From Patescibacteria group bacterium (lineage in GTDB: Bacteria; Patescibacteriota; Patescibacteriia; UBA9570): 64,000 nucleotides of DNA. The DNA lies in NCBI GenBank assembly GCA_041660305.1, contig JBAZWO010000006.1, positions 16,432 through 80,431 on the forward strand. Reading direction: 5' to 3'. The notes below the pieces were generated by a model that worked only from the letters and a program-made list of their open reading frames with translations, was not told the origin of the DNA and searched no databases. Below, in pieces: positions 1 to 63,033 of this stretch (position 1 is its first letter; the number at the start of each line of letters is the position of its first letter). The position numbers were made by a program, and so were the translations under genes.

Positions 1-894
1 TAAATCGTGAGTAATTCTACCTGGGCGAATATCATAACAAATGGTAGCGCCAGGTTCGCGCTCTAATACTAATTGAGCAATTAGGCCGCGAATAATCGCT
101 GGATCAATCATATTGCCTTCGTTGTCAATAAAAAAGATTCTATCACCATCACCATCGGTAGCAATACCTAAATCGGCTTGTTCAGCTACAACACGCTTCA
201 TTAATTCAATATTATTTTTGGCTTTAAATGGATCTGCTTCATGCGCTGGCATGTTACCATCTAACTTGGCATTTAATTCAATAACAGTACATGGTAAATG
301 CTTAAACATAGCGCGTAAATAAGTACTACCCATGGCGTTAGCCGTATCGGTAACAATTTTAAAGGGTTTAATATTTTCTGTGCCAGCCCAAGCTATTTCA
401 AACTGAACATGTTCTTCTATAATACCAGTTTGTGTGCGCACCGATCCGCCGCCTGGAGCTGGCGCAAAATTTTGCGCTAATACCTGATCGCGCATTTCCG
501 CGATACCATTTTCGATACTAACTGGTTTTACGCCAGTGCGCACAAATTTTAAACCGTTGTATTCTTTTGGGTTATGAGAAGCCGTTATCATAACACCGCC
601 GTCGTAATGATACTTAGCCACAGCAAAATAAAACGCTGGTGTGGACACCATACCAATATCAATCACGCTAATGCCTTCATCCATAAAGGCTTGGATGACT
701 TGTTGTTTTAAGCTTGGCGACGATAAACGCATATCAGTACCCACCACTAACTCTAACGATGTAGTTCTAGTAACTTCACGTTTACGGAGTTGAGCAAATG
801 ATCGAGCCGTAGCATAAACAATGTTTTCGGTAAGATCTACACCATATACTCCACGAATATCGTAAGCTTTGTAAATAGAAGGATTTACGGTCAT
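1..894 (-). CDS. manB: phosphomannomutase/phosphoglucomutase (alpha-D-phosphohexomutase family); C-terminal part lies outside the window
   Basis: Own translation of the minus strand from the ATG at 894 gives MTVNPSIYKAYDIRGVYG... It carries the active-site loop TASHNP and the metal loop DGDGDR. There is no stop before position 1, which explains its absence from the ORF track. Confidence 0.9.
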   Translation of the reverse strand, partial: MTVNPSIYKAYDIRGVYGVDLTENIVYATARSFAQLRKREVTRTTSLELVVGTDMRLSSPSLKQQVIQAFMDEGISVIDIGMVSTPAFYFAVAKYHYDGGVMITASHNPKEYNGLKFVRTGVKPVSIENGIAEMRDQVLAQNFAPAPGGGSVRTQTGIIEEHVQFEIAWAGTENIKPFKIVTDTANAMGSTYLRAMFKHLPCTVIELNAKLDGNMPAHEADPFKAKNNIELMKRVVAEQADLGIATDGDGDRIFFIDNEGNMIDPAIIRGLIAQLVLEREPGATICYDIRPGRITHDL

Positions 895-1002: not shown

Positions 1003-1042
1003 TGAGAGTACTATACATAATTTTAAACGCTTTAGCAAGATA

Positions 1043-1170
1043 CTACCTTCCATCCCCAACCCTTCCCTCCTCTAAAGAGGGAAGGGAGAAATTTCTTCTC
1101 CTCCCTTTAGAGGGGAGGCCTCCGGTTCTACGAAGTCGTAGGCTCGGAGAGAGGTTGGAAGGTGGGGTAG
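1043..1170. repeat. GC-rich nested-hairpin element, copy A (CTACC...GGTAG termini)
   Basis: A 128-bp GC-rich island in AT-rich DNA. It has a perfect 10-bp hairpin at 1060-1069/1077-1086 (CCCTTCCCTC/GAGGGAAGGG) and CTACGA-AG-TCGTAG at 1128-1141. Positions 1043-1090 (48 nt) are identical to 60077-60124. Confidence 0.85.
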
Positions 1171-1888
1171 TTTTTTTTGCAACCGTAACAATATTACGCT
1201 TATTCTCTGAATAAGCTTGTTGTTGTATTTGCCAGCCAGTAGCGTTTAATAAATAATTTAATTCTTTTAACGTAAAACCATGATAATAACGCTGGGCTAA
1301 AATTTTTCCAGCGCCATTTTTCCAAGGAATTAACGCATCGCCTGGATCGTATTGATTAACAAAATATTTTTTTAATTTTGGTTGATCCAAATTCCAGTTA
1401 GTCATGAATAATAGGCCAGCTGGTTTGGTTACCCGATGAAATTCTGTTAACGCTTGTAAACGTAATTGTTCAGACGGAATGTGTTGCAAGCTAGCAATGG
1501 CGGCAACAACATTAAAAACACCTTCTGGAAATGGTAGTTTTAACATTGAGCTTACAATGAAATTTAATTCAGGATATCGTTGTTTAGCGTTGGTGATTAA
1601 TTTTTCGGAAATATCTAGGCCGGTGTATTGTACGGGCTTGATTTTATTGATAATTTCCGCTAATCTGCCGTTACCACAACCGACATCTAATATTGTAATT
1701 TTATCAGCCCGCCTCGCCTCGGCGGAGCTTTCGGCGTAGTCGAGGCGGGTATTTTCATAATTTATCAGTGTTTTCAGTGCTTCAAACTCTCTCCAGGCAT
1801 ATTGTCTGGTTCGTGTAAATTCGTCAGCGATGGTATTATAATCCTGAGTGATTTTATCTATTAATTTTTGCGCCAATGCTAATTGCAT
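1043..1888 (-). CDS. class I SAM-dependent methyltransferase, Trm9/ALKBH8-MT-like (putative tRNA cm5U34 methyltransferase); last ~42 aa encoded by repeat element A
   Basis: Motif I is ILDVGCGNGRL. The N-terminus DYNTIADEFTRTRQYAW, plus AIASLQHIP, TNWNLDQ and LIPW..RYYHGFTLKEL, resemble the Trm9 signature as I recall it. The stop codon TAG is the reverse complement of the element's terminal CTA (1043-1045). Confidence 0.75.
   Translation of the reverse strand: MQLALAQKLIDKITQDYNTIADEFTRTRQYAWREFEALKTLINYENTRLDYAESSAEARRADKITILDVGCGNGRLAEIINKIKPVQYTGLDISEKLITNAKQRYPELNFIVSSMLKLPFPEGVFNVVAAIASLQHIPSEQLRLQALTEFHRVTKPAGLLFMTNWNLDQPKLKKYFVNQYDPGDALIPWKNGAGKILAQRYYHGFTLKELNYLLNATGWQIQQQAYSENKRNIVTVAKKTTPPSNLSPSLRLRRTGGLPSKGRRRNFSLPSLEEGRVGDGR
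1708..1749. repeat. GC-rich inverted repeat inside the methyltransferase CDS
   Basis: CCCGCCTCG (1708-1716) pairs perfectly with CGAGGCGGG (1741-1749). The spacer contains a TCGGCG direct repeat. The element is translated in frame as ..YAESSAEARRADK.. just upstream of motif I. Confidence 0.7.
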
Positions 1889-3533: not shown

Positions 3534-4352
3534 ATGAAAAAAATCACTCCACAAGGATTGCAAGTATATACGTTTAAGCGGAATGACAACGATTATATTT
3601 CTTTAACTGACATAGCTCGTTATAAAAACACTGACGAACCAAAAGATATAGTCAAAAATTGGATGCGAACTAGAAGTACTATTGAATTTCTTGGGATTTG
3701 GGAGCAGTTAAATAATCCAAGATTCAAAGGGGTCGAATTCGATGCCTTTAAAAATTCAGCTGGTAGTAATTCTTTTGTATTATCGCCTCAAAAATGGATA
3801 GAACATACCAATGCTATTGGAGTGGTATCAAAATCTGGGAATGGCGGTGGTACATTTGCTCATAAGGATATAGCCTTTGAATTTGCTTCATGGATTAGCC
3901 CAGAATTCAAACTTTATCTCATTAAAGAATTTCAGCGCTTAAAAGACGAAGAAAATGAGCGTTTGCAAATAGGCTGGAGTACAAAACGTATGCTTACTAA
4001 AATAAATTATCATATACATACAGATGCTATTCAACGGCACTTAATTCCTAATCGCTTAGCACAAAACGAAATTAATATTATCTATGCGAACGAAGCCGAT
4101 GTATTAAATAAAGCCTTGTTTGGAAAAACAGCTAAAGAATGGCGAGCTAAAAATCCAAAAAAAGCTGGTAATATCCGCGATTATGCCGATGTTGTACAAC
4201 TGGTTTGTTTAGCGAATTTAGAAAGTTTGAACGCTGAATTTATTCGCCAAAACATCAAACAATCAGATCGCTTAATAAAATTAAACGAAATAGCCATTAT
4301 CCAAATGCGAGCGTTGTTAGCTAATAATACACTTAAACGCTTGGGGCGCTAG
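3534..4352 (+). CDS. KilA-N domain-containing DNA-binding protein (phage/mobile-element associated family)
   Basis: The N-terminal YISLTDIARYKN...FAHKDIAFEFASWISPEFKLYLIKEF pattern is typical of KilA-N proteins. Confidence 0.8.
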   Translation: MKKITPQGLQVYTFKRNDNDYISLTDIARYKNTDEPKDIVKNWMRTRSTIEFLGIWEQLNNPRFKGVEFDAFKNSAGSNSFVLSPQKWIEHTNAIGVVSKSGNGGGTFAHKDIAFEFASWISPEFKLYLIKEFQRLKDEENERLQIGWSTKRMLTKINYHIHTDAIQRHLIPNRLAQNEINIIYANEADVLNKALFGKTAKEWRAKNPKKAGNIRDYADVVQLVCLANLESLNAEFIRQNIKQSDRLIKLNEIAIIQMRALLANNTLKRLGR

Positions 4353-4362
4353 GTTTTTAAAA

Positions 4363-4415: not shown

Positions 4416-4442
4416 AAAATTCATTAATTAAGTATTGACAAA

Positions 4443-4720: not shown

Positions 4721-4723
4721 ATT

Positions 4724-5173: not shown

Positions 5174-5192
5174 GTATTAATAAAGTATTTGT

Positions 5193-7061: not shown

Positions 7062-8126
7062 ATGGCATTACAAATAGGCATTGTTGGTCTGCCCAACGTA
7101 GGAAAATCAACGTTATTTAAAGCGCTGACCAAAATTCAGGTGGAGGCGAGTAATTATCCGTTTTGTACGATTGATCCTAATATTGGGGTGGTACCGGTGC
7201 CGGATGAACGGATTAATAAATTAAGTGTGTTATCAAAATCAGCCAAAACGATTCCGGCCGCGATTGAGTTTGTGGATATTGCCGGGCTGGTAGCGGGTGC
7301 ACATAAAGGTGAAGGATTGGGCAACAAGTTTTTAAGCAATATTCGAAATGTAGATGCCATTGTGCAAGTGGTGCGCGAATTTAGCGATGGGAATGTTATT
7401 CATGTGCATGGCAAAGTGGATCCAAAAAGCGATGTTGAGGTGATTAATTTAGAATTAATCATGGCCGATCTGGAATTATTAAAAAAACATTTAGACAAGG
7501 TAGATAAAAAAGTGCGCGGCAATGATAAAGAGGCGATTCGTGAACAAGTGGTGCTGAAAAAAATTATTACTGTGTTAGAAGCCGGCCAGTTAGCCAGTAC
7601 GGTTACGCTGGATCCGGAATTAGAAGAGCCATTTGTTAAAGTGTTAAATTTGTTAACCAGAAAACCCATGTTGTATGTGGTGAATGTGGATGAATCTGCT
7701 ACGCCGAAGGCTTCGCAGAATTTTGGCCATGATGCAGTGGAAATTTCAGCTAAAATTGAAGCCGAATTAGCAGAATTGCCAGATGAAGATGCTAAAATGA
7801 TGATGCAGGAATTAGGGATGAAAGAAACTGGGTTAGAAAAATTAATTGTGGCTAGTTACAAACTACTTAATTTAATATCTTATTTTACTACCGGCGAAGA
7901 TGAAACTAAAGCTTGGACGATTCACCAAGGCGATTTAGCGCCTCGAGCCGCCGGAGTGATTCACACCGATTTTGAACAGAAATTCATTCGGGCGGAAGTA
8001 ATTGCTTGGGATAAATTATTAGAGGCCAAAGGGTGGGCACAGGCTAGAGATAAAGGCTGGTTACGCATGGAAGGAAAGAATTACATGGTGCACGATGGAG
8101 ACGTAATGGTGTTTCATCATGCGTAA
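7062..8126 (+). CDS. ychF: redox-regulated/ribosome-binding ATPase YchF
   Basis: G1 motif GLPNVGKSTLF, NYPFCTIDPN, and a C-terminal TGS-like end MEGKNYMVHDGDVMVF. Confidence 0.95.
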   Translation: MALQIGIVGLPNVGKSTLFKALTKIQVEASNYPFCTIDPNIGVVPVPDERINKLSVLSKSAKTIPAAIEFVDIAGLVAGAHKGEGLGNKFLSNIRNVDAIVQVVREFSDGNVIHVHGKVDPKSDVEVINLELIMADLELLKKHLDKVDKKVRGNDKEAIREQVVLKKIITVLEAGQLASTVTLDPELEEPFVKVLNLLTRKPMLYVVNVDESATPKASQNFGHDAVEISAKIEAELAELPDEDAKMMMQELGMKETGLEKLIVASYKLLNLISYFTTGEDETKAWTIHQGDLAPRAAGVIHTDFEQKFIRAEVIAWDKLLEAKGWAQARDKGWLRMEGKNYMVHDGDVMVFHHA

Positions 8127-9747
8127 ATTTAATTTTCCATTCATCTTGTTAATCACGTTGATCATGATCATCATGGTCACGAATTGTATTTGGATTTATC
8201 AAGACCAAAGTCCGCCATTATCAGATATGGCTGGCCATTCGTTTCGTAGTGTGCAAATGGCTCATTGGTTACAGGATGGTAAATTGTTAAGTATTTTAAA
8301 ACAAGATACCATTTATCCACCATTTACTTATCTGGTTACGGGAATTATTTTTTTATTAGTTGGTTATTATCCAGATATTCCACAGTATTCGTTATTGTTA
8401 TGGGTAATAATATTAATGATTTCTATTTACAGTATTGGTAACACGATTTATAAAAATAAATATTTAGCGTTAGGCGCAACAGCGTTAACCATGTGTTATC
8501 CATTGGTAGCACATTTTAGCAGAATTTATGATCTTGATTTTCCGTTAACGGCCTTAGTAACAGCTAGTATGGCGGTATTATTACAAACGAATCATTTTGC
8601 TAAACGCCGGGAAACTATTGTTTTTTCATTACTAGTGGTAGCGGTATTATTAACCAAATGGACAGGAGTGTTTTTTATAGTGGGGCCAGCGTTTATTGTA
8701 TTATTATCAAAACGAAATAACATTAATATAAAAAATATTAGTCTGGCATTAGGCATTATTTTGGTGTTGACCATGCCTTGGTATTGGTTGCACACCAACA
8801 TCATTTTAGATATTGCCGAGGCTACGCGCAATAATGTGTTTTCTGTGCCACACGAGAATTTGTTACGTTTAAAAAGTTTGTTATTTTATGCACGATCTAT
8901 TACGCAAGGCATTATTTGGCCACTAACTCTAATATTTTTAACTGGTGTGATTATTTGTTTTAAAAAAATAAAACGTTGTTATTTTTGGCTATTAGTTAGT
9001 TGGTTGATAATACCATATTTAATCTTCACGTTTATTTATTCAAAAGAGATTCGTTATTTAATGCCGTTGTATCCGGCGCTAGCTCTTTGCAGTATGAGTT
9101 GTTTTAGTTATTTATTTTCAGCTTACTCACTGAAGCTTAAGCGTAGGTGGGTGTTCTCAGTAATTATTTCAGTATTCTCAGTGATTCTGATGTTTTGTAT
9201 TTGGTTCGATACATCTTGGGGCACAAGACTGTTACCATTTTCTCATGCCTACGGTTATCAAAAAATTACTCCTAAACAAGTGTATTATGGGTTTACGTAT
9301 CCTACGCAGTATCACACAACATTAATGTTAGTTGCTCAAGAACTAGCTAATATAGGTTCAGCTAAAGTAGCGGTAGTGCCGAATAGTATTTTTTTAACGG
9401 CTACGCAAATACAATATTACACGGCGTTGCATGGTAATATAAAGCTTAATTTTTCATTGAGTAGTAAATTGCGCAATCCGGCGTGGCGAGATGTATTACC
9501 TCAAGCCGATTATGTGATTACCAAAACCGGCGAACAAGGGCCAAAATTATGGGCAGCTAATTTAAAAGATATTGCAACAGCTGAACAGAATAATGATGTT
9601 ATTTTTCAGCAATTTGAATTAATTGGTCAGTGGCAATTAAATGGTATTGAAACTAGTGCGCAACAAATTAATTTATATAAAAAAAACGATAAATTACTCC
9701 CTTTCCCCTTAATAGGGGAAAGGGTTGGGGATAGAGGTAGGATTTAA
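8119..9747 (+). CDS. polytopic membrane protein, GT-C fold glycosyltransferase-like (PMT/ArnT, GT39/GT83-like); last ~16 aa encoded by repeat element C
   Basis: It has at least 10 hydrophobic segments, an IYPPFTYL motif typical of PMT_2/ArnT-like proteins, and a large C-terminal soluble domain. The C-terminal LLPFPLIGERVGDRGRI is read from the GC-rich hairpin. Confidence 0.6.
   Translation: MRKFNFPFILLITLIMIIMVTNCIWIYQDQSPPLSDMAGHSFRSVQMAHWLQDGKLLSILKQDTIYPPFTYLVTGIIFLLVGYYPDIPQYSLLLWVIILMISIYSIGNTIYKNKYLALGATALTMCYPLVAHFSRIYDLDFPLTALVTASMAVLLQTNHFAKRRETIVFSLLVVAVLLTKWTGVFFIVGPAFIVLLSKRNNINIKNISLALGIILVLTMPWYWLHTNIILDIAEATRNNVFSVPHENLLRLKSLLFYARSITQGIIWPLTLIFLTGVIICFKKIKRCYFWLLVSWLIIPYLIFTFIYSKEIRYLMPLYPALALCSMSCFSYLFSAYSLKLKRRWVFSVIISVFSVILMFCIWFDTSWGTRLLPFSHAYGYQKITPKQVYYGFTYPTQYHTTLMLVAQELANIGSAKVAVVPNSIFLTATQIQYYTALHGNIKLNFSLSSKLRNPAWRDVLPQADYVITKTGEQGPKLWAANLKDIATAEQNNDVIFQQFELIGQWQLNGIETSAQQINLYKKNDKLLPFPLIGERVGDRGRI
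9699..9741. repeat. GC-rich hairpin element, copy C
   Basis: A perfect 10-bp stem CCCTTTCCCC/GGGGAAAGGG with loop TTAATA (9699-9724), then GGGGATAGAGGTAGG. The 26-nt core and GGGGATAGAGGTA are shared with 61646-61690. Confidence 0.85.
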
Positions 9748-11806: not shown

Positions 11807-11812
11807 AATATC

Positions 11813-11885
11813 CTACCTCACCCTGTCTCTCGACTTACGCTCGAGACATCCCTCTCCTATTAGGAGAGGGAAAGAGGGAGAGGTA
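11813..11885. repeat. GC-rich nested-hairpin element, copy E
   Basis: 11-bp terminal inverted repeats TACCTCACCCT (11814-11824) and AGGGAGAGGTA (11875-11885) with 1 mismatch. Inner hairpins are TCTCGA/TCGAGA (11828-11846) and CCCTCTCC/GGAGAGGG (11850-11870). Confidence 0.8.
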
Positions 11886-12790
11886 ATTTTTAAATATTCC
11901 TTAATCCCTTCCTTAAAATTATACTTTGGTTTCCAGTTTAAGATAGCCCTAGCTTTGCGAGCATTTAAACACGAGCGCAGTGCTTCACCGGTACGCACGG
12001 CTTTGTATTTAGCCGTTGGCGCATGTTTAAAATTAGCACTAATGGTATCGTAAACCATTTGGTCACTTATTTCTTTACCTAAGCCTAAATTTACGGTTAA
12101 ATGATCTCCTTTTTTTAAACCAATTACGTTAGCCTGTACAATATCAGCCACATAAGTATAGTCGCGCGTTTTTGAGCCATCTCCATATATAGTTGGATTA
12201 ACATTCTGGCGAATTTTCTCGCTAAATATTGCTACCACACCAGCCTCACCATGTGGGTCTTGTCGTGGACCATACACATTTGGGTAACGAAAAATAGTGT
12301 AATTAAATTTTCCAACTCGAGCATAATATTCAATACACTTTTCGCCTAATAATTTTGATAAACCATATGGTGAAAGTGGTTCAGGGTTTACTCGTTCAGA
12401 AATGGGGTATTTGCCCGGATCTCCATAAATAGCGCCACCGGTAGAAGCGAAGATAAACTTTTTAATCTTAATTTCCATGCCCGTCAACAACAAGTTTACC
12501 GTGCCTTGTACGTTCACTTCCAAAGTTGGAATAGGGTCGGTAACCGATTTTACTACTTCCGCAATAGCGGCATGATGGTTAATAATTTCCGGTTTTTCTG
12601 TCTGCATAATCTTGCGAATAGCTGTTAGATCACGAATATCTGCCTGATAAAACTTAGCTTTTGGGTTAATATTCTGTTTAAAACCATGGTGCATACTATC
12701 AACCACCACTACTTTATGGCCTAATTTAATATAAGCAGCAGTAATATGAGAGGCAATGAATCCGGCTCCGCCGGTAACGAGAATACGCAT
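11813..12790 (-). CDS. NAD-dependent SDR epimerase/dehydratase (UDP-glucose 4-epimerase-like); last ~24 aa encoded by repeat element E
   Basis: GGAGFIASH, catalytic YGLSK, and RYPNVYGPRQDPHGEAGVV. The stop TAG is the reverse complement of the element's terminal CTA (11813-11815). Confidence 0.8.
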   Translation of the reverse strand: MRILVTGGAGFIASHITAAYIKLGHKVVVVDSMHHGFKQNINPKAKFYQADIRDLTAIRKIMQTEKPEIINHHAAIAEVVKSVTDPIPTLEVNVQGTVNLLLTGMEIKIKKFIFASTGGAIYGDPGKYPISERVNPEPLSPYGLSKLLGEKCIEYYARVGKFNYTIFRYPNVYGPRQDPHGEAGVVAIFSEKIRQNVNPTIYGDGSKTRDYTYVADIVQANVIGLKKGDHLTVNLGLGKEISDQMVYDTISANFKHAPTAKYKAVRTGEALRSCLNARKARAILNWKPKYNFKEGIKEYLKITSPSFPLLIGEGCLERKSRDRVR

Positions 12791-22370: not shown

Positions 22371-23627
22371 TTATAAATCACGCACTAGCCAATCATGTTT
22401 GAGTAAAACATTTCCTTGACCTTCAGGGGGTAGTTGACCAGAACCAAAGAAATCACCATATTCAACTTCAAAACAACCAGCATCGATAATCCAATCAGTA
22501 ATTACATTGCTTGCTGAGACAAATGTATTAAAATAGTAGGTGCCAGGCATTAATGGCAAATTATGCCATTCTAAAATAAATTGCCCCTTAGACGGGATAG
22601 TCTTAAACACGTTTCCAGTTGCAAGATTTATCATATTTAGAAATGTTTCTCCAAATTGATTCATAATTGGAAATGAAACAATCACATCATGAACAGTGCT
22701 AAAGGTAGCGTCTGTTTCATAGTTAAAAATGATGCGAACGTCTTGTCCGGTACGTAGAATTGATATAGCTTCACTTGAAAAATTTTCAAATCTTATTTGA
22801 GTTATTTTTATTTTACCATTACCTTGTCGATCTTTACGCTGATCTAATTTGATTTCTGCAGATACAACCGAATTGTCTTTTAGATATTCATGAATAGTTT
22901 CTTCAACAGGAGCGTCCTTAATAACGTATCCATCTTTTAATAAAATAGCTCGTTGGCACAGTTTTTGGATAGCACTTAAATTATGACTAACAAAAATAAT
23001 AGTGCGTCCTTTATTATGAGTTACTTCGCTCATTTTTCCTAAACATTTTTTTTGAAATTGAGTATCACCCACTGCTAATACTTCATCAACTAACAGAATC
23101 TCTGGTTCTAGATGAGCGGCTACAGCAAAAGCTAATCGTACATACATGCCAGAGGAATAGTGTTTCACTGGAGTGTCTAAAAATTGTTCAATTTCGGCAA
23201 AAGCAACTATCTCAGTAAATTTTTTTTGAATTTCTCTTTTTGTCATTCCTAAGATGGCTCCATTTAAAAAAATATTTTCTCTTCCAGTTAGTTCCGGATG
23301 AAAACCAGTACCAACTTCAAGTAAACTTGCCACTCTACCATGCAAAGTGATGCGGCCTGTGGTTGGCGGTGTAATTTGTGATAAAATTTTTAGCAAGGTG
23401 CTTTTGCCAGCTCCATTACGTCCAATTAAGCCGATTATTTCGCCACGAGTAACTGAAAAATTAACATCCTGCAAGGCAAAAAATTGTCGTACTTCAGTTT
23501 TTGAATGAAATAAATGTTTCGGGTTAAGCATTTTACCAAGAACATCACGTAGAGATAAATAAGATGCCTGCTTGCCCAAACGATATTGTTTGCTAATATG
23601 ATCTACTTGAATAATTGGTTTTTCCAT
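22371..23627 (-). CDS. wzt: polysaccharide ABC exporter ATP-binding protein with extended C-terminal domain (Wzt/TagH type), copy 1
   Basis: Walker A GRNGAGKST, signature YSSGMYVRL, Walker B LLVDEVLAVGD, plus about 170 aa of extra C-terminal domain. Confidence 0.9.
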   Translation of the reverse strand: MEKPIIQVDHISKQYRLGKQASYLSLRDVLGKMLNPKHLFHSKTEVRQFFALQDVNFSVTRGEIIGLIGRNGAGKSTLLKILSQITPPTTGRITLHGRVASLLEVGTGFHPELTGRENIFLNGAILGMTKREIQKKFTEIVAFAEIEQFLDTPVKHYSSGMYVRLAFAVAAHLEPEILLVDEVLAVGDTQFQKKCLGKMSEVTHNKGRTIIFVSHNLSAIQKLCQRAILLKDGYVIKDAPVEETIHEYLKDNSVVSAEIKLDQRKDRQGNGKIKITQIRFENFSSEAISILRTGQDVRIIFNYETDATFSTVHDVIVSFPIMNQFGETFLNMINLATGNVFKTIPSKGQFILEWHNLPLMPGTYYFNTFVSASNVITDWIIDAGCFEVEYGDFFGSGQLPPEGQGNVLLKHDWLVRDL

Positions 23628-50818: not shown

Positions 50819-51658
50819 ATGTTTAGACAGGAAGTTAGTGTACAAACTAAGGTAATTACTCCACCAACGACGTTGTTGAGTTTGAATATTAAGGAATTTT
50901 GGCGCTTTCGTGAATTGTTCTATATTTTTGTTTGGCGTGATGTTAAGGTGCGATACAAACAAACAATGTTAGGGATTGCTTGGGCTGTGTTTCAGCCATT
51001 AGTTACCATGCTAATTTTTACGGTTTTTTTTGGAAATTTGGCCAAAATTCCTTCTGATGGAGTACCATACCCCATTTTTGTGTATGCTGGGTTATTGTTA
51101 TGGAATTATTATTCAGTAGCTTTAACTAACATTAGCACGGTATTGGTGGCACAAGAAAGCATTATTAAGAAAGTTTATTTTCCTAGATTGATATTACCAT
51201 TAGCTACCGCTTTAACACCAACGATAGATCTGGTGTTTTCTTTTTTTGTATTTATTGGTTTAATGTTTTATTTTCATTTTGTACCACATGTATTAGGTAT
51301 TGTGATTATGCCGGTGTTGATTTTTTTTACATTTCTTAACGCAGCTGGCTTGGGCTTATTTTTGTCGTCACTAAATGTAAAATATCGTGACGTGCAATAC
51401 ATTGTTCCTTTTTTTATTCAAATATTATTATTTGTTACCCCTGTGATTTATCCAGTAAGTATGATTCCGGCAAAATATACTTGGTTAGCCTGGTTAAATC
51501 CTATGGCGGGTATTATTACTACAGCGCGTGCTACTTTACTTGGCGGTCCAATACAATTTTGGCCAGTAGTATTTACAATAGGGTTGTGTTTATTTTTATT
51601 TTTATTTGGGATAGTATTTTTTAGAAAAACTGAACGTTTTTTTGCTGATATTTTATGA
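50819..51658 (+). CDS. wzm: ABC-2 type polysaccharide exporter permease (Wzm/TagG type), copy 2
   Basis: WRDVKVRYKQT, NVKYRDVQY and six TM segments. It is collinear with 23631-24452. Confidence 0.9.
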   Translation: MFRQEVSVQTKVITPPTTLLSLNIKEFWRFRELFYIFVWRDVKVRYKQTMLGIAWAVFQPLVTMLIFTVFFGNLAKIPSDGVPYPIFVYAGLLLWNYYSVALTNISTVLVAQESIIKKVYFPRLILPLATALTPTIDLVFSFFVFIGLMFYFHFVPHVLGIVIMPVLIFFTFLNAAGLGLFLSSLNVKYRDVQYIVPFFIQILLFVTPVIYPVSMIPAKYTWLAWLNPMAGIITTARATLLGGPIQFWPVVFTIGLCLFLFLFGIVFFRKTERFFADIL

Positions 51659-52914
51659 ATAAACCAGTTATTACCATTGAACACGTTAGTAAACGATATA
51701 GTCTAAACAGGGTAGCACTTGATAATACGTTGCGCGATAAAATTACGCACGCGCTTTATAAACGTAATGAGCCCAAGCAGTCTGCTAAGGTGGATTTTTT
51801 AGCATTGCAAGATATTAATCTAACTGTTCAACAAGGAGAAACGTTAGGAATCATTGGTCGTAATGGTGCGGGTAAAAGCACATTGTTAAAAGTACTATCA
51901 CAAATTACACCTCCAACTGCAGGGAAAATTACGTTATGTGGGCGAGTGGCTAGTTTGTTAGAAGTAGGCACAGGCTTTCATCCAGAGTTAACTGGGCGGG
52001 AAAATATTTTTCTTAATGGGGCAATATTAGGTATGACTCGTAAAGAAATTAATAAAAAATTTAATGACATTGTTACTTTTGCGGAAATCGAACAATTTAT
52101 TGATACGCCAGTTAAACGTTATTCTAGTGGTATGTATGTTCGTTTGGCGTTTGCTGTAGCCGCTCAACTTGAACCGGAAATTTTAATTATTGACGAAGTT
52201 TTGGCCGTCGGAGACATTCAATTTCAAAAAAAATGTCTTGGTAAAATGGGCGAAGCAGGCAAGCAAGGAAGAACAGTAATTTTTGTTAGCCACAACATGA
52301 ATGCGATTGAACAATTGTGTCGGTCTTGTGTATGGTTAGATCATGGCATGGTTAAAGCACATAGCAATAATGATGTATCGAGTGTTATTAAAGCGTATGT
52401 GGCAGAAAGTCTAGACAAAACTCAGGCTACCCAGTGGGTGAATAATAACAATGAATTTGCTAATCAATGGTTTACACCATGTAAATTTTATTTAGCTGAT
52501 GCTTATGGTAAAGCGCTTATATTACCACATAGTAATAATAAAGAAGCTTGGGTTCATATTGAAGGCGATATTACAGAAAGTGATACAGCCTTAACTATTG
52601 GTTATGCGATTTATTCCATGGAAGGCAATTTGTTATACTGGTCTTATCAAACTGATCAATCAGAATCTCAATGGCCAAAACTAAAGTTGGGCAAAATTAA
52701 GTTACGCAGCGCTTTACCCCAACGTTTTTTAAATGAGGGTGATTATCGAATAGAGCTTATTTCTAGTTTACATTTTCGACAATGGTTATGTGAGCCAGGC
52801 GTGCATACCCCTACTATATTTTTATCTATTCAAGGTGGTTTGAGCGATTCACCTTATTGGTTAGCTAAACGACCTGGTTTATTAGCGCCGGTTTTGCCAT
52901 GGGAACAATACTAA
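51655..52914 (+). CDS. wzt: polysaccharide ABC exporter ATP-binding protein with extended C-terminal domain (Wzt/TagH type), copy 2
   Basis: GRNGAGKST, YSSGMYVRL and LIIDEVLAVGD. The N-terminal 250 aa closely resemble copy 1, while the C-terminal roughly 170 aa are unrelated by eye. Confidence 0.9.
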   Translation: MNKPVITIEHVSKRYSLNRVALDNTLRDKITHALYKRNEPKQSAKVDFLALQDINLTVQQGETLGIIGRNGAGKSTLLKVLSQITPPTAGKITLCGRVASLLEVGTGFHPELTGRENIFLNGAILGMTRKEINKKFNDIVTFAEIEQFIDTPVKRYSSGMYVRLAFAVAAQLEPEILIIDEVLAVGDIQFQKKCLGKMGEAGKQGRTVIFVSHNMNAIEQLCRSCVWLDHGMVKAHSNNDVSSVIKAYVAESLDKTQATQWVNNNNEFANQWFTPCKFYLADAYGKALILPHSNNKEAWVHIEGDITESDTALTIGYAIYSMEGNLLYWSYQTDQSESQWPKLKLGKIKLRSALPQRFLNEGDYRIELISSLHFRQWLCEPGVHTPTIFLSIQGGLSDSPYWLAKRPGLLAPVLPWEQY

Positions 52915-60016: not shown

Positions 60017-60178
60017 ACACCCTCAACCCCCTAAACATCCTACCTCACTCCCCCTAACCCCCTCTCTCCTCTGATTCTACCTTCCATCCCCAACCCTTCC
60101 CTCCTCTAAAGAGGGAAGGGAGAATTACGAAATTATTCCCTCCTTCCTTTGAGGAAGGAGGGTTAGGGAGGAAGGTAG
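60017..60178. repeat. GC-rich nested-hairpin element, copy B (composite), filling the aroB/aroA-aroK spacer
   Basis: Outer imperfect inverted repeats lie at 60040-60060 and 60160-60178 (CTACCT.../...AGGTAG). The inner 48 nt at 60077-60124 are identical to 1043-1090. A perfect 10-bp hairpin CCCTCCTTCC/GGAAGGAGGG lies at 60138-60162. Confidence 0.85.
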
Positions 60179-60211: not shown

Positions 60212-61693
60212 ATGCATCTTAAACCCGTCAAAATCACCCTTACTTTACCTGGTTCTAAATCGTTAACCCAACGAGCGTTAATTTGTGCTAGCTTGGCGCA
60301 AGGGCAATCAATTATTACGGCACCTAATTATGGTGATGATTTACAATATTTAATTAAGGCATTGCAACAACTAGGTGTACGTATACAAAAAAAATCGAAC
60401 CAACTAATTATAAATGGAGTAGCTGGAAAGTTTTGTGTGCCAACTAAGCCAATTTATGTAGGCGATTCCGGTGCTAATTATCGTTTTCTAGCCGAATTAG
60501 TACCAGTCGGTACCAAATTAACGGGTTCAGCTCAATTACAAAAACGTTTACTAAAAACGGCGCCAACTAGTCAAACGATATCTGGAAAATTATTAGCCGG
60601 TACCCTAACTAAGATACCTGATAAGTTAGTTTCCAAAGGTTATGTGGCCATGACACAAGCCGTTATTCGTGATTTTTCCGGACGCGGTCGAAAATATATT
60701 ATCGAGCCCGATGCTAGTGCGGCCACATATTGGCTCACTTATAACTGGATAACTGGTGCAAAAATAACGTTTAGTAACTGGCCAGTAAAATCTTATCAAC
60801 CTGATTTTCAGTATGCTAAAGCATTGCAACAGTTAACTAACGGCCAAACAGCGTTTGATTTTAATACCATGCCGGATAGCGTAATGAGTTTAGCTGTAGC
60901 AGCCATTTTTACCAAGAAAATAATTACTATTAAAAATATTTCCCAGCTTACTTACAAAGAAAGTAATCGTTTGCAAGCGTTACATTATAATCTAACTAAA
61001 ATCAACATAAAAAATACTATTACAAAAAACAGCATTACTATTTATGGCACGGGTGGTAAATTTAAACATTCCAAAATTAAAACTTTTAATGATCACCGCT
61101 TGGCCATGAGTTTTGGGGTATTAGGTTTGCCAGTAGATAAACCAAATTGTGTAAATAAAAGTTATCCTAATTTTTGGCAAGATTATAAAAAAATTCAAGA
61201 GGCTAATGTAGTGTTAACCGGTATGCGTGGGGTAGGCAAAACTACGTTAGGTAAACAATTAGCCAAACAATGGGGTATGAAGTTTGTGGATTTAGATCAA
61301 CTTATTGAACGTAAAGCTAAATTACCAATTGCTGAAATTGTTGCACGCTACGGCTGGAAAAAATTTCGTGCACTTGAACATCAAGTTTGTAAACAAATTA
61401 CTAAATTACAAAATACGGTTATTGCAACTGGCGGCGGCACATTAATGTATACACGTAATTACCAATTACTAAAACATAATTATATTATTTTATTAACCGC
61501 GCCATTAACTACATTAGCTAAAAGAATTAAACAAGATAACAATATTAGGCCAGCATTATCAAAAAATAACACGGCATTATCAGAATTAAAGGCGATTTGG
61601 GATAAGCGCAAAGAAACATATTATAAAATAGCGGATTTAATTTCCCCCTTTCCCCTTAATAGGGGAAAGGGGGCGAGGGGGATAGAGGTATGA
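60212..61693 (+). CDS. aroA-aroK: bifunctional EPSP synthase (short form, ~330 aa) / shikimate kinase; last ~16 aa encoded by repeat element D
   Basis: AroA motifs are LPGSKS, GDSGANYRF, EPDASAATY, KESNRL, NDHRLAMSF and KSYPNFW. The AroK domain starts near 61211 (TGMRGVGKTTLGKQLA, VDLD, GGG). Confidence 0.85.
   Translation: MHLKPVKITLTLPGSKSLTQRALICASLAQGQSIITAPNYGDDLQYLIKALQQLGVRIQKKSNQLIINGVAGKFCVPTKPIYVGDSGANYRFLAELVPVGTKLTGSAQLQKRLLKTAPTSQTISGKLLAGTLTKIPDKLVSKGYVAMTQAVIRDFSGRGRKYIIEPDASAATYWLTYNWITGAKITFSNWPVKSYQPDFQYAKALQQLTNGQTAFDFNTMPDSVMSLAVAAIFTKKIITIKNISQLTYKESNRLQALHYNLTKINIKNTITKNSITIYGTGGKFKHSKIKTFNDHRLAMSFGVLGLPVDKPNCVNKSYPNFWQDYKKIQEANVVLTGMRGVGKTTLGKQLAKQWGMKFVDLDQLIERKAKLPIAEIVARYGWKKFRALEHQVCKQITKLQNTVIATGGGTLMYTRNYQLLKHNYIILLTAPLTTLAKRIKQDNNIRPALSKNNTALSELKAIWDKRKETYYKIADLISPFPLNRGKGARGIEV
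61644..61690. repeat. GC-rich hairpin element, copy D
   Basis: A perfect 12-bp stem CCCCCTTTCCCC/GGGGAAAGGGGG with loop TTAATA (61644-61673), then GGGGGATAGAGGTA. The core is shared with copy C at 9699-9741. Confidence 0.85.
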
Positions 61694-63033
61694 TTTGTAT
61701 TGTCATCACCAATCCATCTCAAATTAAAACAGCCAACAAAACCGCCGCTAATTTATTAGAATTGCGCACAGATTTATATAAAATTTTTTCTTTAAGTAAA
61801 TTAGTGAAACAATGCCAGAAACCTGTTATTGTTACCATTAAAAATCAAGATAAACAGTTATTGCAAGAAGCTTTAAATTTAAACGTAGCTTATATTGATA
61901 TTGATTACAAAAATAAATTACTGTTAAACTATTTTGAAAAAAATAACAAAAATAATAAAACCAAATTAATTATTTCGTATCATAATTTTTCTCACACTCC
62001 TTCATTCAAACAGTTGGATCGGTTGGTTAAATCAGGCGTGAATAAAATAGCAACCATGATTAACGCGGTTGAGGATAACTGGGTAATCGCGCAGTTATTA
62101 AAAAAATATCCTAATAAAATTACCGCTATTGGCATGGGGGAATTAGGGATCATGACAAGACTGCATCCGTGGCAGAAGATTAGTTATTTTGCGATTGGCT
62201 TTGGTAGAGACGCCTTGCAAGGCGTCTCTACCAAAAAAATTGCTCCAGGGCAATTAACTATTCAAGAGCAAAAATTAAAATTATATGGCATTATTGGTAA
62301 TCCGGTGCAGCATAGCTTATCGCCAAAATTACATAATAGTTGGTTCAAGCAGCATAATATTTTAGCACTATATCAACGCTGGCAGGTAAAGACGTTGCAT
62401 GCAACGTCTCTACAGTTAATGATGAAAATATTCAGATTTTTTGATTTAGCCGGCGCGTCGGTAACCATGCCATATAAAAAAGATATTATTAAATATTTAG
62501 ATAGCATTAATATTCATGCCAAAAAGATTGGTGCAGTTAATACCATTGTGCGGAAAGGAAATAAATTAATTGGCTATAATACCGATTGGATCGGGGTAAA
62601 ATTAGTATTTAACCCCCTGCCTTGCAGGGAAGGGGGTAGGGGGAAGGGTCTACGCGTCTTAATCTTAGGCCGCGGTGGCGCAGCTCAGGCAGTGGCGTAT
62701 GCCATGAAAAAAATGGGTGCGAAATCAATTAACATGTTATCACGTCATGATAAACCAGATATAAATTTTGATATTCTAATTAACGCCACACCCGTGCGTG
62801 ATAAATTATTAATTCCGAAAGAATTATTACACGGTAAAATCGTGATGGATTGTAATTACCTGCCTTCGCTAAAGCTATGGCAGGCAGGTGGCGCTACTAA
62901 ATTATTACGTGTGGCAAAAAAAATGAACGCAATTACTATAGATGGATTACCAATGTTAATCAATCAAGCCAAAGAGCAATTTAGATTGTGGACTAGTAGA
63001 GACGTAGCGCGCTACGTCTCTACTATGTTATAA
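61690..63033 (+). CDS. aroD-aroE: bifunctional type I 3-dehydroquinate dehydratase / shikimate 5-dehydrogenase
   Basis: AroD motifs are ELRTDL, IISYHNF and KIATM. AroE motifs are YGIIGNPVQHSLSP, SVTMPYK, AVNTI, GYNTD and LGRGGAAQA. The ATG overlaps the upstream stop (ATGA). Confidence 0.88.
   Translation: MICIVITNPSQIKTANKTAANLLELRTDLYKIFSLSKLVKQCQKPVIVTIKNQDKQLLQEALNLNVAYIDIDYKNKLLLNYFEKNNKNNKTKLIISYHNFSHTPSFKQLDRLVKSGVNKIATMINAVEDNWVIAQLLKKYPNKITAIGMGELGIMTRLHPWQKISYFAIGFGRDALQGVSTKKIAPGQLTIQEQKLKLYGIIGNPVQHSLSPKLHNSWFKQHNILALYQRWQVKTLHATSLQLMMKIFRFFDLAGASVTMPYKKDIIKYLDSINIHAKKIGAVNTIVRKGNKLIGYNTDWIGVKLVFNPLPCREGGRGKGLRVLILGRGGAAQAVAYAMKKMGAKSINMLSRHDKPDINFDILINATPVRDKLLIPKELLHGKIVMDCNYLPSLKLWQAGGATKLLRVAKKMNAITIDGLPMLINQAKEQFRLWTSRDVARYVSTML
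62201..62234. repeat. perfect 34-bp palindrome, GTAGAGACG-N10-CGTCTCTAC family, copy 1
   Basis: TTGGTAGAGACGCCTTG|CAAGGCGTCTCTACCAA. It is in frame as GRDALQGVST in the AroD-AroE linker. Confidence 0.9.
62386..62413. repeat. 28-bp palindrome (1 mismatch), same family, copy 2
   Basis: GTAAAGACGTTGCA|TGCAACGTCTCTAC. It is in frame as VKTLHATSLQ, a different frame from copies 1 and 3. Confidence 0.85.
62612..62637. repeat. GC-rich hairpin inside aroE part
   Basis: ACCCCC (62612-62617) pairs with GGGGGT (62632-62637). The alternative is CCCTGC-CTT-GCAGGG (62615-62629). It is translated as NPLPCREGGRGKG just before the GRGGA nucleotide-binding loop. Confidence 0.6.
62858..62889. repeat. GC-rich inverted repeat inside aroE part
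   Basis: ACCTGCC (62858-62864) pairs with GGCAGGT (62883-62889). It is translated as YLPSLKLWQAGG. Confidence 0.45.
62994..63025. repeat. perfect 32-bp palindrome, GTAGAGACG-N10-CGTCTCTAC family, copy 3
   Basis: TAGTAGAGACGTAGCG|CGCTACGTCTCTACTA. It is in frame as SRDVARYVST at the extreme C-terminus of AroD-AroE. Confidence 0.9.

Follow-up and report, generated by a model that had tools for sequence, protein, structure and literature searches.

In the window, the whole stretch of 64,000 nucleotides that was analysed, a methyltransferase open reading frame (ORF) at 1043..1888 on the minus strand (281 aa) ends in ...VAKK-TTPPSNLSPSLRLRRTGGLPSKGRRRNFSLPSLEEGRVGDGR followed by a stop codon. An earlier note on this DNA had claimed that positions 1043–1170 form the last ~42 codons and the stop of the gene, and reading of the ORF confirmed this, the TAG being the reverse complement of 1043–1045. 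This raised the question of whether the end of the protein is native and, if it is not, what kind of DNA supplies it.

The features at this locus are as follows:

1171..1888, minus strand: class I SAM methyltransferase, conserved part (residues 1–239), from Pfam, alignment, and model; last beta-strand NIVTVAKK
1046..1171, minus strand: C-terminal tail, non-homologous, 42 codons (TTPPSNLSPS...GRVGDGR), from alignment and pLDDT <50 for residues 253–281
1043..1045, minus strand: stop codon (TAG) of the methyltransferase ORF, supplied by the ...GGTAG end of unit A1
1043..1170, no strand assigned: composite element A, 128 bp, GC-rich, with CTACC...GGTAG ends, from sequence, fold, and absence from the junctions of relatives
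1010..1038, minus strand: sigma-70-type promoter TTGCTA-N17-TATAGT, for the small ORF and phosphoglucomutase, from a consensus scan; conserved in L120 and L121
907..1002, minus strand: small ORF of 31 aa, membrane-like (MKKLRATFPLLLSFGLILG...), conserved, between methyltransferase and phosphoglucomutase; homologous small ORFs in L120, L244, and L245

Native end of the methyltransferase and the junction with the next promoter

When the comparison with orthologues that the earlier note had proposed was run, the native end was located at ...NIVTVAKK; homologues (222–240 aa) stop there, and all 16 of the 16 aligned sequences ended within 0–12 residues of it and lacked the tail. An AlphaFold model of the methyltransferase gave a pLDDT of ~95 up to residue 239 and <50 for residues 253–281. 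The 42 residues of the tail include eight Arg, six Ser, six Leu, six Gly, and five Pro, in agreement with its earlier description as low-complexity and rich in Arg, Pro, Gly, and Ser. A Pfam scan of the 42-aa tail and of the other repeat frames matched no family, and a protein search with the tail found no related proteins. By comparison with its homologues, the tail of the methyltransferase is non-native, and the model predicts that it is probably disordered. On the gene strand, element A contains stop codons in all three frames; therefore, any ORF entering from upstream terminates within the element, and the frame used by the tail is the longest-open one.

In four syntenic relatives (L120, L121, L244, and L245), the order Elp3, methyltransferase, small ORF, and phosphoglucomutase is preserved, no element is present at the junction, and the methyltransferase stop lies inside or adjoining the conserved promoter. 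The promoter pattern in relatives is TTGCnA-N17-TATAGT, and the motif was also spotted by eye in L244 and L245. In the window, element A ends 4 nt upstream of the −35 box of this promoter. In silico removal of exactly 1043–1170 restored ...AKKISC followed by a stop, with the TAA within the −35 box and in the same phase as in L120. The closest relative was only ~57% identical in protein, and a search of a metagenome collection for an empty site, with the two flanks joined by a gap of 0–30 nt, gave no matches. Element A thus appears, from the arrangement in the relatives, to be an insertion into the methyltransferase/promoter junction.

Triplex-motif units in element A and elsewhere in the window

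Within element A, the following parts were distinguished:

1045..1086, minus strand: unit A1, class II intrastrand triplex motif, from an ITxF-like scan and the 48-mer identity
1095..1118, plus strand: inner hairpin CTTCTCCTCCC / GGGGAGG with loop TTTAGA, from the fold
1120..1152, plus strand: nested GC hairpin CTCCG-GTT-CTACG-AAGT-CGTAG-GCT-CGGAG, interrupting the right-hand unit, from the fold
1150..1170, plus strand: right end AGAGAGG-TT-GGAAGGTGGGG-TAG, a degenerate G-block and mirrored third block with 8/11 triads

The CTACC...GGTAG ends and the internal hairpins described in the earlier note were seen in the sequence and in the fold, which include a perfect 10-bp hairpin at 1060–1086 and further hairpins. 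As gene-strand RNA, element A folded with −64.7 kcal/mol (z = −4.2; none of 200 shuffles was as stable) into an outer stem formed from its two ends and four inner hairpins, and the terminal inverted repeats that pair as the outer stem, CTACCTTCCATCCCCAACC and GGTTGGAAGGTGGGGTAG, are imperfect. Element A consists of two inverted triplex-motif units in a "third-blocks-out" arrangement, separated by two small hairpins. The earlier statements on the sequence of the 128 bp were upheld, but the stretch is a mosaic of smaller units and not one element. On the minus strand, unit A1 consists of a C-block (1086–1075), a loop (1074–1072), a G-block (1071–1060), a TTG loop (1059–1057), and a mirrored G-block (1056–1045). 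The hairpin at 1095..1118 probably represents what is left of a decayed right-hand unit, namely its C-block and a portion of its G-block.

The building block is ~42 nt long and consists of a C-rich block, a loop, a G-rich block, 2–3 nt, and a mirror-image G-rich block. A class II motif (PIT/ITxF) comprises a pyrimidine block, a complementary purine block, and a purine/T block antiparallel to the purine block, and is defined by stems of 6–15 nt with ≤1 mismatch, loops of 1–6 nt, and G·G:C, A·A:T, or T·A:T triads (PMC4666352). A three-block scan of the window (stem ≥8 nt, ≤1 mismatch each in duplex and third strand, loops of 1–6 nt) found seven units with stems of 9–13 nt, first loops of 3–6 nt, and second loops of 1–3 nt. 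Among 100 dinucleotide-preserving shuffles, 99 contained no unit and one contained a single unit (~0.01 expected versus seven). The window units have the blocks that define class II and are over-represented relative to scrambled sequence; as judged from the sequence, they are class II intrastrand triplex motifs, the class of E. coli BoxC/PIT/TMECO. Outside element A, the units and related features are:

9699..9738, plus strand: unit B, forming the tail KLLPFPLIGERVGDRGRI and stop of ORF 8119..9747, from scan and translation
11811..11886, no strand assigned: element C, with a hairpin at 11848–11871 and third blocks on both strands, making the epimerase tail and TAG stop
60040..60076, minus strand: partial unit D1, with G-block, TTA, and mirrored block, 13/14 triads
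60077..60176, no strand assigned: second "third-blocks-out" pair, 100 nt, consisting of an A1-identical unit (60079–60120, minus strand) and unit D2
60138–60176, plus strand: unit D2, CCCTCCTTCCT-TTG-AGGAAGGAGGG-TTA-GGGAGGAAGGT, from the three-block scan
61644..61689, plus strand: unit E, forming the tail ISPFPLNRGKGARGIEV and stop of the EPSP synthase-shikimate kinase ORF (60212..61693)
62613..62647, plus strand: unit F, in frame in the shikimate dehydrogenase part of ORF 61690..63033 (NPLPCREGGRGKG), aroE

Repeat-derived tails of 17–42 residues occur in four genes (ORFs 1043..1888, 8119..9747, 11813..12790, and 60212..61693), the 3′ ends of which are overlapped by units, and five of the six loci that carry repeats are situated at gene junctions. 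The third blocks of element C are at 11874–11884 (plus strand) and, after a 25-nt hairpin, at 11813–11823 (minus strand). The epimerase ORF at 11813..12790 (minus strand) stops on the terminal CTA of element C, as the earlier note had stated, and the ATG of the next gene is at 11806. The end of unit E, ...GGTATGA, contains both the ATG with which the next gene starts and the TGA stop, and unit F directly precedes the GxGGxA NADP-binding motif. For the native end of ORF 8119..9747, no orthologue was found in relatives, in which the neighbouring genes are not homologous.

Two claims of the earlier note have to be narrowed. The terminal CTA/TAG does supply the stops of the methyltransferase and epimerase genes, but this is not general, as only two of the four read-through ORFs use it, versus one in three expected. 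Selection for donation of an in-frame stop was rejected on these counts, together with the presence of stops in every frame. The claim that the repeat lands on gene 3′ ends is supported by the three further ORF ends overlapped by units, but survivorship in a compact genome explains them equally well as targeting does.

The reading that we favour, with a probability of about 0.68, is that element A is a mosaic of intrastrand-triplex-motif repeats whose constraint lies in DNA structure and not in RNA or protein, this constraint being what would keep the repeat family recognisable. In single-stranded DNA, the mirrored block could fold back onto the hairpin of its unit and pair there in reverse-Hoogsteen fashion as a third strand (G·G:C, A·A:T, T·A:T). 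Two outward-facing units would provide the CTACC... and ...GGTAG ends of element A with their third blocks, and the right unit would have decayed and been split by the small GC hairpin. The mosaic may have been inserted, at once or stepwise, into the short gap that separated the ...VAKK codons from the −35 box, so that the native methyltransferase stop was displaced and translation would run on to the TAG of GGTAG. The 42 added residues would be an unselected, probably disordered appendage beyond the last beta-strand, tolerated because the catalytic fold and the downstream promoter are intact. The 4-nt distance to the conserved −35 box and the purine-rich, Shine-Dalgarno-like ends before the starts at 11806 and 61690 would also be compatible with a regulatory role. 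Triplex formation in vivo is unproven even in E. coli (PMC4666352).

Copies, covariation, and alternative explanations

The identity of 1043–1090 with 60077–60124, reported in the earlier note, was confirmed (100% over 48 nt; 0 such matches expected by chance), and it corresponds to exactly one unit, A1 with its flanking bases, the class of which had not been recognised. Three of the four bases directly upstream of the 48-mer match too. The pair at 60077–60176 is non-coding there. The pairs at 1043 and 60077 have just one of two units in common; therefore, the pair is not the copied entity. The C-block of D1 is probably at 60186–60201, in which case the 100-nt pair would sit in the first loop of D1 and be nested within it. 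In a metagenome collection, the tail 20-mer of the 48-mer unit was found only at these two loci and in one chance match; thus, the unit is not a high-copy identical repeat. The recent copying proposed earlier is supported by the two identical loci, but it is limited in that the 20-mer is found at those loci only.

Units of the form CCCTTCTCCC-loop-GGGAGAAGGG-TTG-GGGATGAGGG-TAG were also found in other genomes. Near-identical units are present in assemblies assigned to Deinococcales, Undibacterium, Legionella, Thiothrix, cyanobacteria, Chloroflexi, Bacteroidota, and Saccharibacteria, and unannotated copies are present in replicons of Aeromonas, Azospirillum, and Cupriavidus in a plasmid collection. 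In alignments anchored on the hairpin, of units gathered by a pattern fixing 18 bases and with kinship ignored in the statistics, 99% of hairpin cells were paired, and both partners had changed in seven of 11 pairs, a level reached by 0 of 500 shuffles; of the 34 unique units, 30 had a third block that mirrored the purine block over its variable part, a count equalled by 0 of 2000 permutations. This three-way covariation across phyla argues that the DNA triplex fold, and not the hairpin alone, is conserved; if it survives a kinship-corrected test, comparative data would for the first time indicate a role for these triplexes in living cells. A literal sequence search of the literature for the unit found nothing, and Rfam gave no gathering-score match in the window or in seven family loci from other genomes. 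A G-quadruplex reading of the G-rich part was considered, with G3+ tracts occurring in the cross-phylum consensus; however, the fourth tract is merely GG in most window units, and mirror-symmetric covariation is better suited to a triplex.

A wider claim can be put forward tentatively, and we regard it as possible rather than probable: the ~42-nt unit (hairpin and mirrored G-block with a GGTAG end) may form a single family that spans phyla, made up of single-stranded-DNA elements selected for their structure, with a triplex fold selected in vivo and with spread without target-site duplication. In compact, Patescibacteria-like genomes, such units would be pushed into coding sequence, making new protein termini and in-frame inserts in essential enzymes. 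If such a family exists, the relevance of BoxC/PIT repeats in cells would become testable by comparative genomics.

As an alternative to the favoured mosaic of triplex-motif repeats, element A could be a classical non-autonomous transposon, either a MITE or a REPIN moved by RAYT or an IS200-like single-strand transposase, cut and pasted as an inverted pair of 100–130 bp. GTAG is the tetranucleotide conserved in REPs. Its presence in the units, the imperfect terminal inverted repeats with CTACC/GGTAG ends, the 100% identity of one unit at two loci, and the apparent position of the 100-nt pair inside the loop of another unit are in line with this alternative, and a structural constraint on single-stranded DNA would suit single-strand transposases. 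We nevertheless consider a transposon unlikely. No copy has a target-site duplication: there was no direct repeat in the flanks of element A (...AAGATA|CTACC / GGTAG|TTTTTTTT) or of the pair at 60077–60176 (...TGATT|CTACC / GGTAG|TATTGA). No transposase was seen among the ORFs scanned beside the elements, and when 778 ORFs located no more than 2.5 kb from 51 units of other genomes were clustered, a generic ABC ATPase was the sole recurrent cluster, that is, no recurrent specific protein family and no candidate mobilising enzyme. Moreover, GTAG closes the third block instead of sitting at the foot of the hairpin, its place in REPs; with just one of two units in common, the two pairs were not copied as pairs; and TMECO of E. 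coli is not associated with mobile elements (PMC4666352). Mobility, as suggested in the earlier note, is putative: no target-site duplication was found, nor a transposase among the ORFs scanned beside the elements, a recurrent neighbour, or an empty site in the metagenomes.

Retention of element A for gene expression, as an insulator, terminator, or mRNA stabiliser, as a promoter modulator, or through ends acting as ribosome-binding sites, is quite improbable. The gene-strand fold with its many hairpins is very stable and lies 4 nt upstream of a conserved −35 box, the end at 11811–11813 (...GGTGAGGTAGGATATTATG) places AGGA 5 nt before the next ATG, GAGGT adjoins the ATG at 61684–61692, and the location of five of the six repeat-bearing loci at gene junctions also agrees with such a role. 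However, relatives have the same promoter and junction with the element absent, no U-tract follows the gene-strand structure and no terminator-like site was called, the unit inside aroE fits none of these roles, and an RNA hairpin leaves the covariation of the mirror block unaccounted for. In E. coli, PIT/TMECO showed neither promoter nor terminator activity (PMC4666352).

It is very unlikely that the 42-residue tail is a selected functional extension, such as an Arg-rich RNA-binding tail of a tRNA methyltransferase. The tail is basic (eight Arg and one Lys of 42), and the enzyme probably works with the adjacent Elp3 in tRNA modification; however, no homologue has a tail, its sequence is set by a DNA repeat that is non-coding at 60077–60176, and the predicted disorder, the use of merely the longest-open frame, and the peptide search without related proteins all speak against function. 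Under the favoured reading of a mosaic insertion, we infer that the tail is a by-product that would be translated but would serve no function.

The probability of an artefact or misclassification is negligible: assembly duplication, which the earlier note had named as its own alternative, is contradicted by the 100% identity of both loci in other assemblies (JGI Ga0172379, in which the two loci are on different contigs and have unique flanks; a MAG contig from NCBI with an identical length of 12,214 bp, probably from the same assembly as JGI Ga0172379; and ENA ERZ27249449), and a structured RNA, namely a molybdenum-cofactor riboswitch suggested by a sub-threshold Rfam RF01055 match at 1051–1161 on the minus strand (24.5 bits, E = 0.0028 in a 1-kb search), was rejected on account of the score below the gathering score of 36, of neighbour genes unrelated to molybdenum cofactor, and of the separate occurrence of the element modules elsewhere.

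Comparison with known repeat systems

BoxC/PIT/TMECO repeats have been known since the 1990s; to our knowledge, no function or mode of spread has been established for them. PIT stands for potential intrastrand triplex, and BoxC, PIT, and TMECO are the same repeat (PMC4666352; Hoyne and Maher 2000/2002 cited there). TMECO of E. coli forms a triplex in vitro, has no promoter or terminator activity, is unlinked to transposons, and varies in its loci among strains (Holder et al. 2015, NAR, PMC4666352), and purine-motif triplexes cannot form in RNA (PMC4666352). The window units share with these repeats the three blocks on one strand (C-rich, loop of 3–6 nt, G-rich, loop of 2–3 nt with TTA or TTG, mirrored G-rich), and the architecture in the E. 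coli TMECO table matches them, including the TTA second loop of D2. Both are G/C-rich whatever the genomic background, and both occur singly and in inverted pairs, as many dispersed copies with no linked transposase and no known function. The strict TMECO consensus, 5′-CCCTCNCCC N3-6 GGGNGAGGG N3 GGGNGAGGG-3′ (PMC4666352), had no match in the window, D2 being the closest unit. The window blocks are 9–13 nt with more A/T triads, and ...GGTAG/GGTAA closes the units. The host, a member of the Patescibacteria, is AT-rich (34% GC), and the pairs face outwards, whereas those of E. coli face inwards (Table 1 coordinates, PMC4666352). E. coli units are reported to be always intergenic; in contrast, four window units overlap ORF 3′ ends and one lies in frame in aroE. 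What is new here is the overlap of BoxC/PIT-type repeats with genes, the repeat class itself being known from E. coli, where it was reported between genes.

Bacterial MITEs (PMC10969869; Coxiella QMITEs, PMC5896051) resemble element A in length (~100–130 bp), terminal inverted repeats, strong fold, insertion at gene ends, and fusion to host ORFs. However, the window elements have no target-site duplication, no related insertion sequence was found among the ORFs scanned beside them, and the two "copies" share only one 48-nt unit, the composite not being the unit of copying. REP/BIME and REPIN-RAYT systems (PMC3116915; PMC3184786) likewise have short (20–45 nt), GC-rich hairpin units with a GTAG motif, which occur singly, as inverted doublets, and as mosaics at gene junctions, with units nested in units. 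In REPs, GTAG (or GTGG) is at the 5′ foot of the hairpin, whereas in the window GTAG closes the third block ~14–16 nt 3′ of the hairpin; furthermore, REPs are extragenic and lack the mirrored third block, and the ORFs scanned beside the elements included no RAYT gene. A second palindromic repeat family in the window (GTAGAGACG...CGTCTCTAC) is closer to what is described for REPs than the triplex units are, and a literature search with its sequence found just irrelevant primer matches.

In the AT-rich genome of the window, four genes have their stop codons replaced by units, and a further unit lies within shikimate dehydrogenase, in its reading frame. Such tails are to be recognised as repeat-derived in the annotation and modelling of proteins from metagenome-assembled genomes. 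We know of no reason to expect sequence similarity to the Rickettsia palindromic elements (RPEs), to which the units are likened by function alone. RPEs are ~100–150 bp, specific to Rickettsia, and not purine/pyrimidine-asymmetric triplex motifs, and the window cases are mostly C-terminal extensions and not internal inserts. Like the window units, RPEs are small palindromic repeats of a reduced, AT-rich genome that occur in frame, both within unrelated housekeeping genes and at their termini, as translated, tolerated peptide segments (Ogata et al. 2000, 2002, summarised in PMC10969869), and the present case parallels them as a route to new protein ends.

The methyltransferase gene and its C-terminal tail

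The window is AT-rich (33.9% GC), whereas the 128 bp at 1043-1170, referred to as element A, contain 55% GC and are limited by CTACC at the start and GGTAG at the end. A class I SAM-dependent methyltransferase ORF of 281 aa (1043..1888, - strand; Pfam Methyltransf_11/25 at residues 66-161) runs through all of element A, which encodes its final 42 codons (TTPPSNLSPSLRLRRTGGLPSKGRRRNFSLPSLEEGRVGDGR), and the stop codon TAG is the reverse complement of 1043-1045. Element A contains one perfect 10-bp hairpin (1060-1086) plus others. The gene-strand RNA was predicted to fold at -64.7 kcal/mol (z = -4.2; equally stable shuffles, 0/200), with both ends pairing as an outer stem around four hairpins. 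The sequence at 60077-60124 showed 100% identity with 1043-1090, where the number of matches expected by chance was zero. The 3' end formed by element A with its TAG stop, the hairpins, and the 48-nt identity, all described in the earlier note, were thus confirmed from the sequence. An assembly artefact was excluded because both loci were identical in other assemblies and lay on separate contigs in a JGI assembly; the 1043-1170 locus was identical also in an ENA assembly.

A search of 5.8 billion proteins gave 390 methyltransferase homologues, the best of which (own protein aside) showed 45-57% identity over 85% of the query and were 222-240 aa long. All C-termini of 16 aligned homologues were located 0-12 residues from ...NIVTVAKK (query residue 239), and none of the 16 carried the 42-aa tail. 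In an AlphaFold model with the homologue alignment as input, pLDDT was approximately 95 for residues 1-239, of which 232-239 formed the last beta-strand, and below 50 for residues 253-281. Four syntenic relatives (L120, L121, L244, and L245) shared the gene order Elp3-like radical SAM enzyme, methyltransferase, and phosphoglucomutase, with a small membrane ORF between the latter two in three of them. A promoter-like motif, CTTGCnAAA-N-TGTATAGT, was conserved upstream of the small ORF in all four, and in each the methyltransferase stop was inside or adjoining this motif. The same promoter was present in the window as TTGCTA-N17-TATAGT (1038..1010, - strand), with the end of element A 4 nt upstream of the -35 box. 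A conserved 31-aa hydrophobic small ORF begins 7 nt after this promoter (promoter and ORF together, 907-1038, - strand), and phosphoglucomutase lies directly downstream.

Deletion of 1043-1170 in silico resulted in an ORF ending ...V A K K I S C stop, whose TAA falls within the -35 box, and the phase of this reading frame was that of the L120 gene through its own -35 box. In the simplest history, element A would have inserted after the last conserved codons and ahead of the promoter, pushing out the native stop but leaving the enzyme fold and the downstream promoter intact. The core inference of the earlier note, a repeat insertion that changed the C-terminus and provides the stop, was therefore supported by the homologues and the four relatives without the tail.

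The full-length Elp3 gene (1876-3429, + strand; TIGR01211, 517 bits vs a cutoff of 350) and the methyltransferase gene form a divergent pair with overlapping starts, and this pairing was kept in the four relatives. The pairing supports the label "Trm9-like" and is suggestive of a U34 tRNA modification pathway of the Elp3/Trm9 type in the lineage; the methyltransferase itself scored below every specific NCBIfam cutoff. Between Elp3 and serine hydroxymethyltransferase, which are adjacent in L121, the window has a gene with a KilA-N domain and a pair of short antitoxin/toxin-like ORFs (3534-5709), one member of the pair matching PhdYeFM_antitox in L001. Together these may form a small islet of mobile or defence genes.

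Unit anatomy and triplex-motif architecture

Screening of the window for purine/pyrimidine-asymmetric GC-rich tracts gave six loci: 1043-1170, 9692-9742, 11811-11886, 60017-60176, 61640-61690, and 62610-62650. Common to these was a unit of approximately 42 nt. On its purine strand, a pyrimidine block is followed by a short AT-rich loop and the complementary purine block; a turn of 2-3 nt (TTG, TTA or CGA) then leads into another purine block, usually ending in ...GGTAG. The 48-mer at 1043-1090 and 60077-60124 was exactly one unit, and the composites 1043-1170 and 60077-60176 were otherwise wholly different; therefore, the copied entity was the unit, not the composite. Element A is a mosaic rather than one repeat, composed of a left unit (1086 to 1045, - strand) and a decayed right unit (+ strand, third block fitting 8/11 positions) broken up by a small GC hairpin at 1120-1152. 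Its CTACC/GGTAG "terminal inverted repeats" arise because the third blocks of the two halves point outward. The second purine block mirrors the first: in the unit at 60138-60176, AGGAAGGAGGG read backwards is GGGAGGAAGG, and the unit at 1045-1086 fitted at 9/10 positions. The locus at 11811-11886 was two-sided, a single hairpin with a third block on either strand.

This is the class II purine-motif intrastrand triplex architecture of E. coli, reported for BoxC, then PIT elements, then TMECO, the last with the consensus CCCTCNCCC-N3-6-GGGNGAGGG-N3-GGGNGAGGG (for example, CCCTCTCCCTTGAGGGAGAGGGTTAGGGTGAGGGT) (PMC4666352). Our three-block scan, using published-type criteria (a stem of 8 or more, no more than one mismatch each in duplex and third strand, short loops), detected seven units in the window.

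Triplex-motif units detected by the three-block scan
1045-1086, - strand
9699-9738, + strand
11848-11884, + strand
60079-60120, - strand
60138-60176, + strand
61644-61689, + strand
62613-62647, + strand

Among 100 dinucleotide-preserving shuffles, 99 had no unit and one had a single unit. There was no match to the strict E. coli TMECO consensus in the window, so these units are relatives of the class, not TMECO proper. By its block architecture, element A belongs to the BoxC/PIT/TMECO-type intrastrand triplex motifs, a class known but little studied.

A scan for the pattern AAGGGTTGGGGAT-N2-6-GGTAG in one genome per species matched at least 109 loci, and 41 distinct sequences among those retrieved had a pyrimidine/purine hairpin (perfect stem of at least 7 bp) directly upstream, a feature outside the search pattern. 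The family consensus was CTCCCTTCTCCC-loop-GGGAGAAGGG-TTG-GGGATGAGGG-TAG. Assemblies with units, among the matches listed, included Deinococcales, Undibacterium, Legionella, Thiothrix, cyanobacteria, Chloroflexi, Bacteroidota, Saccharibacteria, and others; further units, without annotation, were found in Aeromonas caviae (10 places), Azospirillum lipoferum replicons, and Cupriavidus. CTCCCTTCTCCC-loop-GGGAGAAGGGTTGGGGATGAGGGTAG was almost the same across assemblies of many phyla (loci L008-L116; L123 1500-1580), and several Deinococcales MAGs had many copies each. In A. caviae, two facing units lie just past a gene end with third blocks inward, as in E. coli. The purine part of the family unit also fits the G-quadruplex pattern GGG-N4-GGG-N2-GGGG-N4-GGG.

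When 18 units (three from the window) were aligned on their hairpins, 99% of cells were paired, and both-sided changes occurred in 7/11 pairs (as high in 0/500 shuffles), in a set chosen by pattern and hairpin presence and with statistics that ignore relatedness. The changes, each time C-G to U-A, preserved the pyrimidine/purine asymmetry. In the part unfixed by the pattern, and with the same limits of selection and relatedness, the third block mirrored the purine block in 30/34 unique units (as high in 0/2000 permutations), for example as GGGAG/GAGGG, GGGGG/GGGGG, GGAG/GAGG, and GAGAG/GAGAG. Purine-motif triplexes do not form in RNA (PMC4666352). Since three-way covariation is predicted by a triplex and not by an RNA hairpin, the constraint on the unit points to single-stranded DNA. 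This cross-phylum covariation of all three blocks is the most interesting lead.

Units and palindromes within coding sequence

Four ORFs in the window read into units and gain tails, which start after the Pfam domain end wherever a domain is known.

ORFs with unit-derived tails
1043..1888, methyltransferase: 42 aa; stop, the unit's terminal TAG
8119..9747, ORF: KLLPFPLIGERVGDRGRI; stop, TAA just past the unit
11813..12790 (- strand), epimerase: ITSPSFPLLIGEGCLERKSRDRVR; stop, the unit's terminal TAG
60212..61693, EPSP synthase-shikimate kinase fusion: ISPFPLNRGKGARGIEV; stop, TGA overlapping the next ATG

The epimerase does end on the terminal CTA of a related element, as had been noted. The stop codon is supplied by the element. 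Donating a stop is nonetheless not a property under selection: no more than 2/4 tailed ORFs have the terminal TAG in frame, and every frame on the gene strand of element A contains stops. The shikimate dehydrogenase part of ORF 61690..63033 holds a further unit in frame, translated NPLPCREGGRGKG, just before the GxGGxA motif in a loop that is 4 residues shorter in solved homologues. Very short intergenic spacers are the simplest explanation for the coding overlap, with surviving insertions left on gene ends. The proposed landing on gene 3' ends is only partly supported: the overlap at four ORF ends stands, and such survivorship would account for it no less than targeting.

Purine-rich ends of units lie immediately before start codons at 11806-11813 (GGTGAGGTAGGATATTATG) and 61684-61693 (GATAGAGGTATGA), and may serve as ribosome-binding sites or part of translational coupling. 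A second family consists of perfect 28-32-nt palindromes, GTAGAGACG...CGTCTCTAC, present in the window at 62203-62232, 62387-62415, and 62994-63025, all in frame within the dehydroquinase-shikimate dehydrogenase ORF (GRDALQGVST, KTLHATSLQ, and SRDVARYVST); solved homologues are shorter by 3-6 residues at the first two sites. More than 120 viral contigs contained the palindrome pattern with a 10-nt centre, frequently in several copies each. An insertion hot spot, empty in most other methyltransferase homologues, was observed just upstream of SAM-binding motif I (LDVGCG).

Palindromes at the methyltransferase hot spot
Window 1708-1749: GC-rich, CCCGCCTCG...CGAGGCGGG, translated RLDYAESSAEARR (pLDDT ~64)
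L120 10100-10127: GTAGAGACG-type, perfect
L245 3718-3745: GTAGAGACG-type, partly decayed
L244 6864+125..165: GTAGAGACG-type, decayed

The compact shikimate-pathway operon at 57936-64000 (DAHP synthase, dehydroquinate synthase, and the EPSP synthase-shikimate kinase and dehydroquinase-shikimate dehydrogenase fusions) holds five repeat insertions, and is a notable biosynthetic capacity for a genome with Patescibacteria as its best hits. Elsewhere, a 460-nt inverted repeat (75% complementary; 23024-23483 vs 51796-52255) lies within ORFs 22371..23627 (- strand) and 51655..52914 (+ strand), whose translations resemble ABC-transporter ATPases by eye; the two are probably paralogues for polysaccharide export, within a large cluster of glycosyltransferases.

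Spread, alternative readings, and known repeats

The 100-nt pair at 60077-60176 apparently interrupts another unit at its first loop; the purine and third blocks of that unit are at 60040-60076 (13/14 triads), and its pyrimidine block is probably at 60186-60201. Deinococcales units were interrupted by other hairpins at fixed points, and in an Undibacterium-like MAG the unit was contained in a 250-bp repeat. These are hints of insertion. On the other side, there was no target-site duplication at any copy in the window, no transposase among the ORFs scanned beside the elements, no recurrent protein family near units at 51 loci in other genomes, and no empty site in metagenomes. The mobility and the recent copying claimed in the earlier note are only partly supported; a metagenome search gave no copies of the identical unit beyond the two loci. 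A MITE or REPIN moved by a transposase is improbable. Slightly less probable still is a regulatory role: element A adjoins a conserved promoter and Shine-Dalgarno-like purine ends precede the ATGs at 11806 and 61690, but the relatives manage without the element. Also unlikely are a selected protein tail, an artefact, and a riboswitch; for the last, the Rfam Moco match reached 24.5 bits against a threshold of 36.

Triplex units of E. coli have been associated at most with local genomic instability and were reported to be without promoter or terminator activity (PMC4666352). REPs have GTAG at the hairpin foot, as likewise do the GTAGAGACG...CGTCTCTAC palindromes. What is new here is a variant of the BoxC/PIT/TMECO class in a probable Patescibacteria genome (judged by the source names of the best protein hits), overlapping coding sequence; this overlap is the main difference from E. 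coli TMECO units, which were reported to be always intergenic (PMC4666352).
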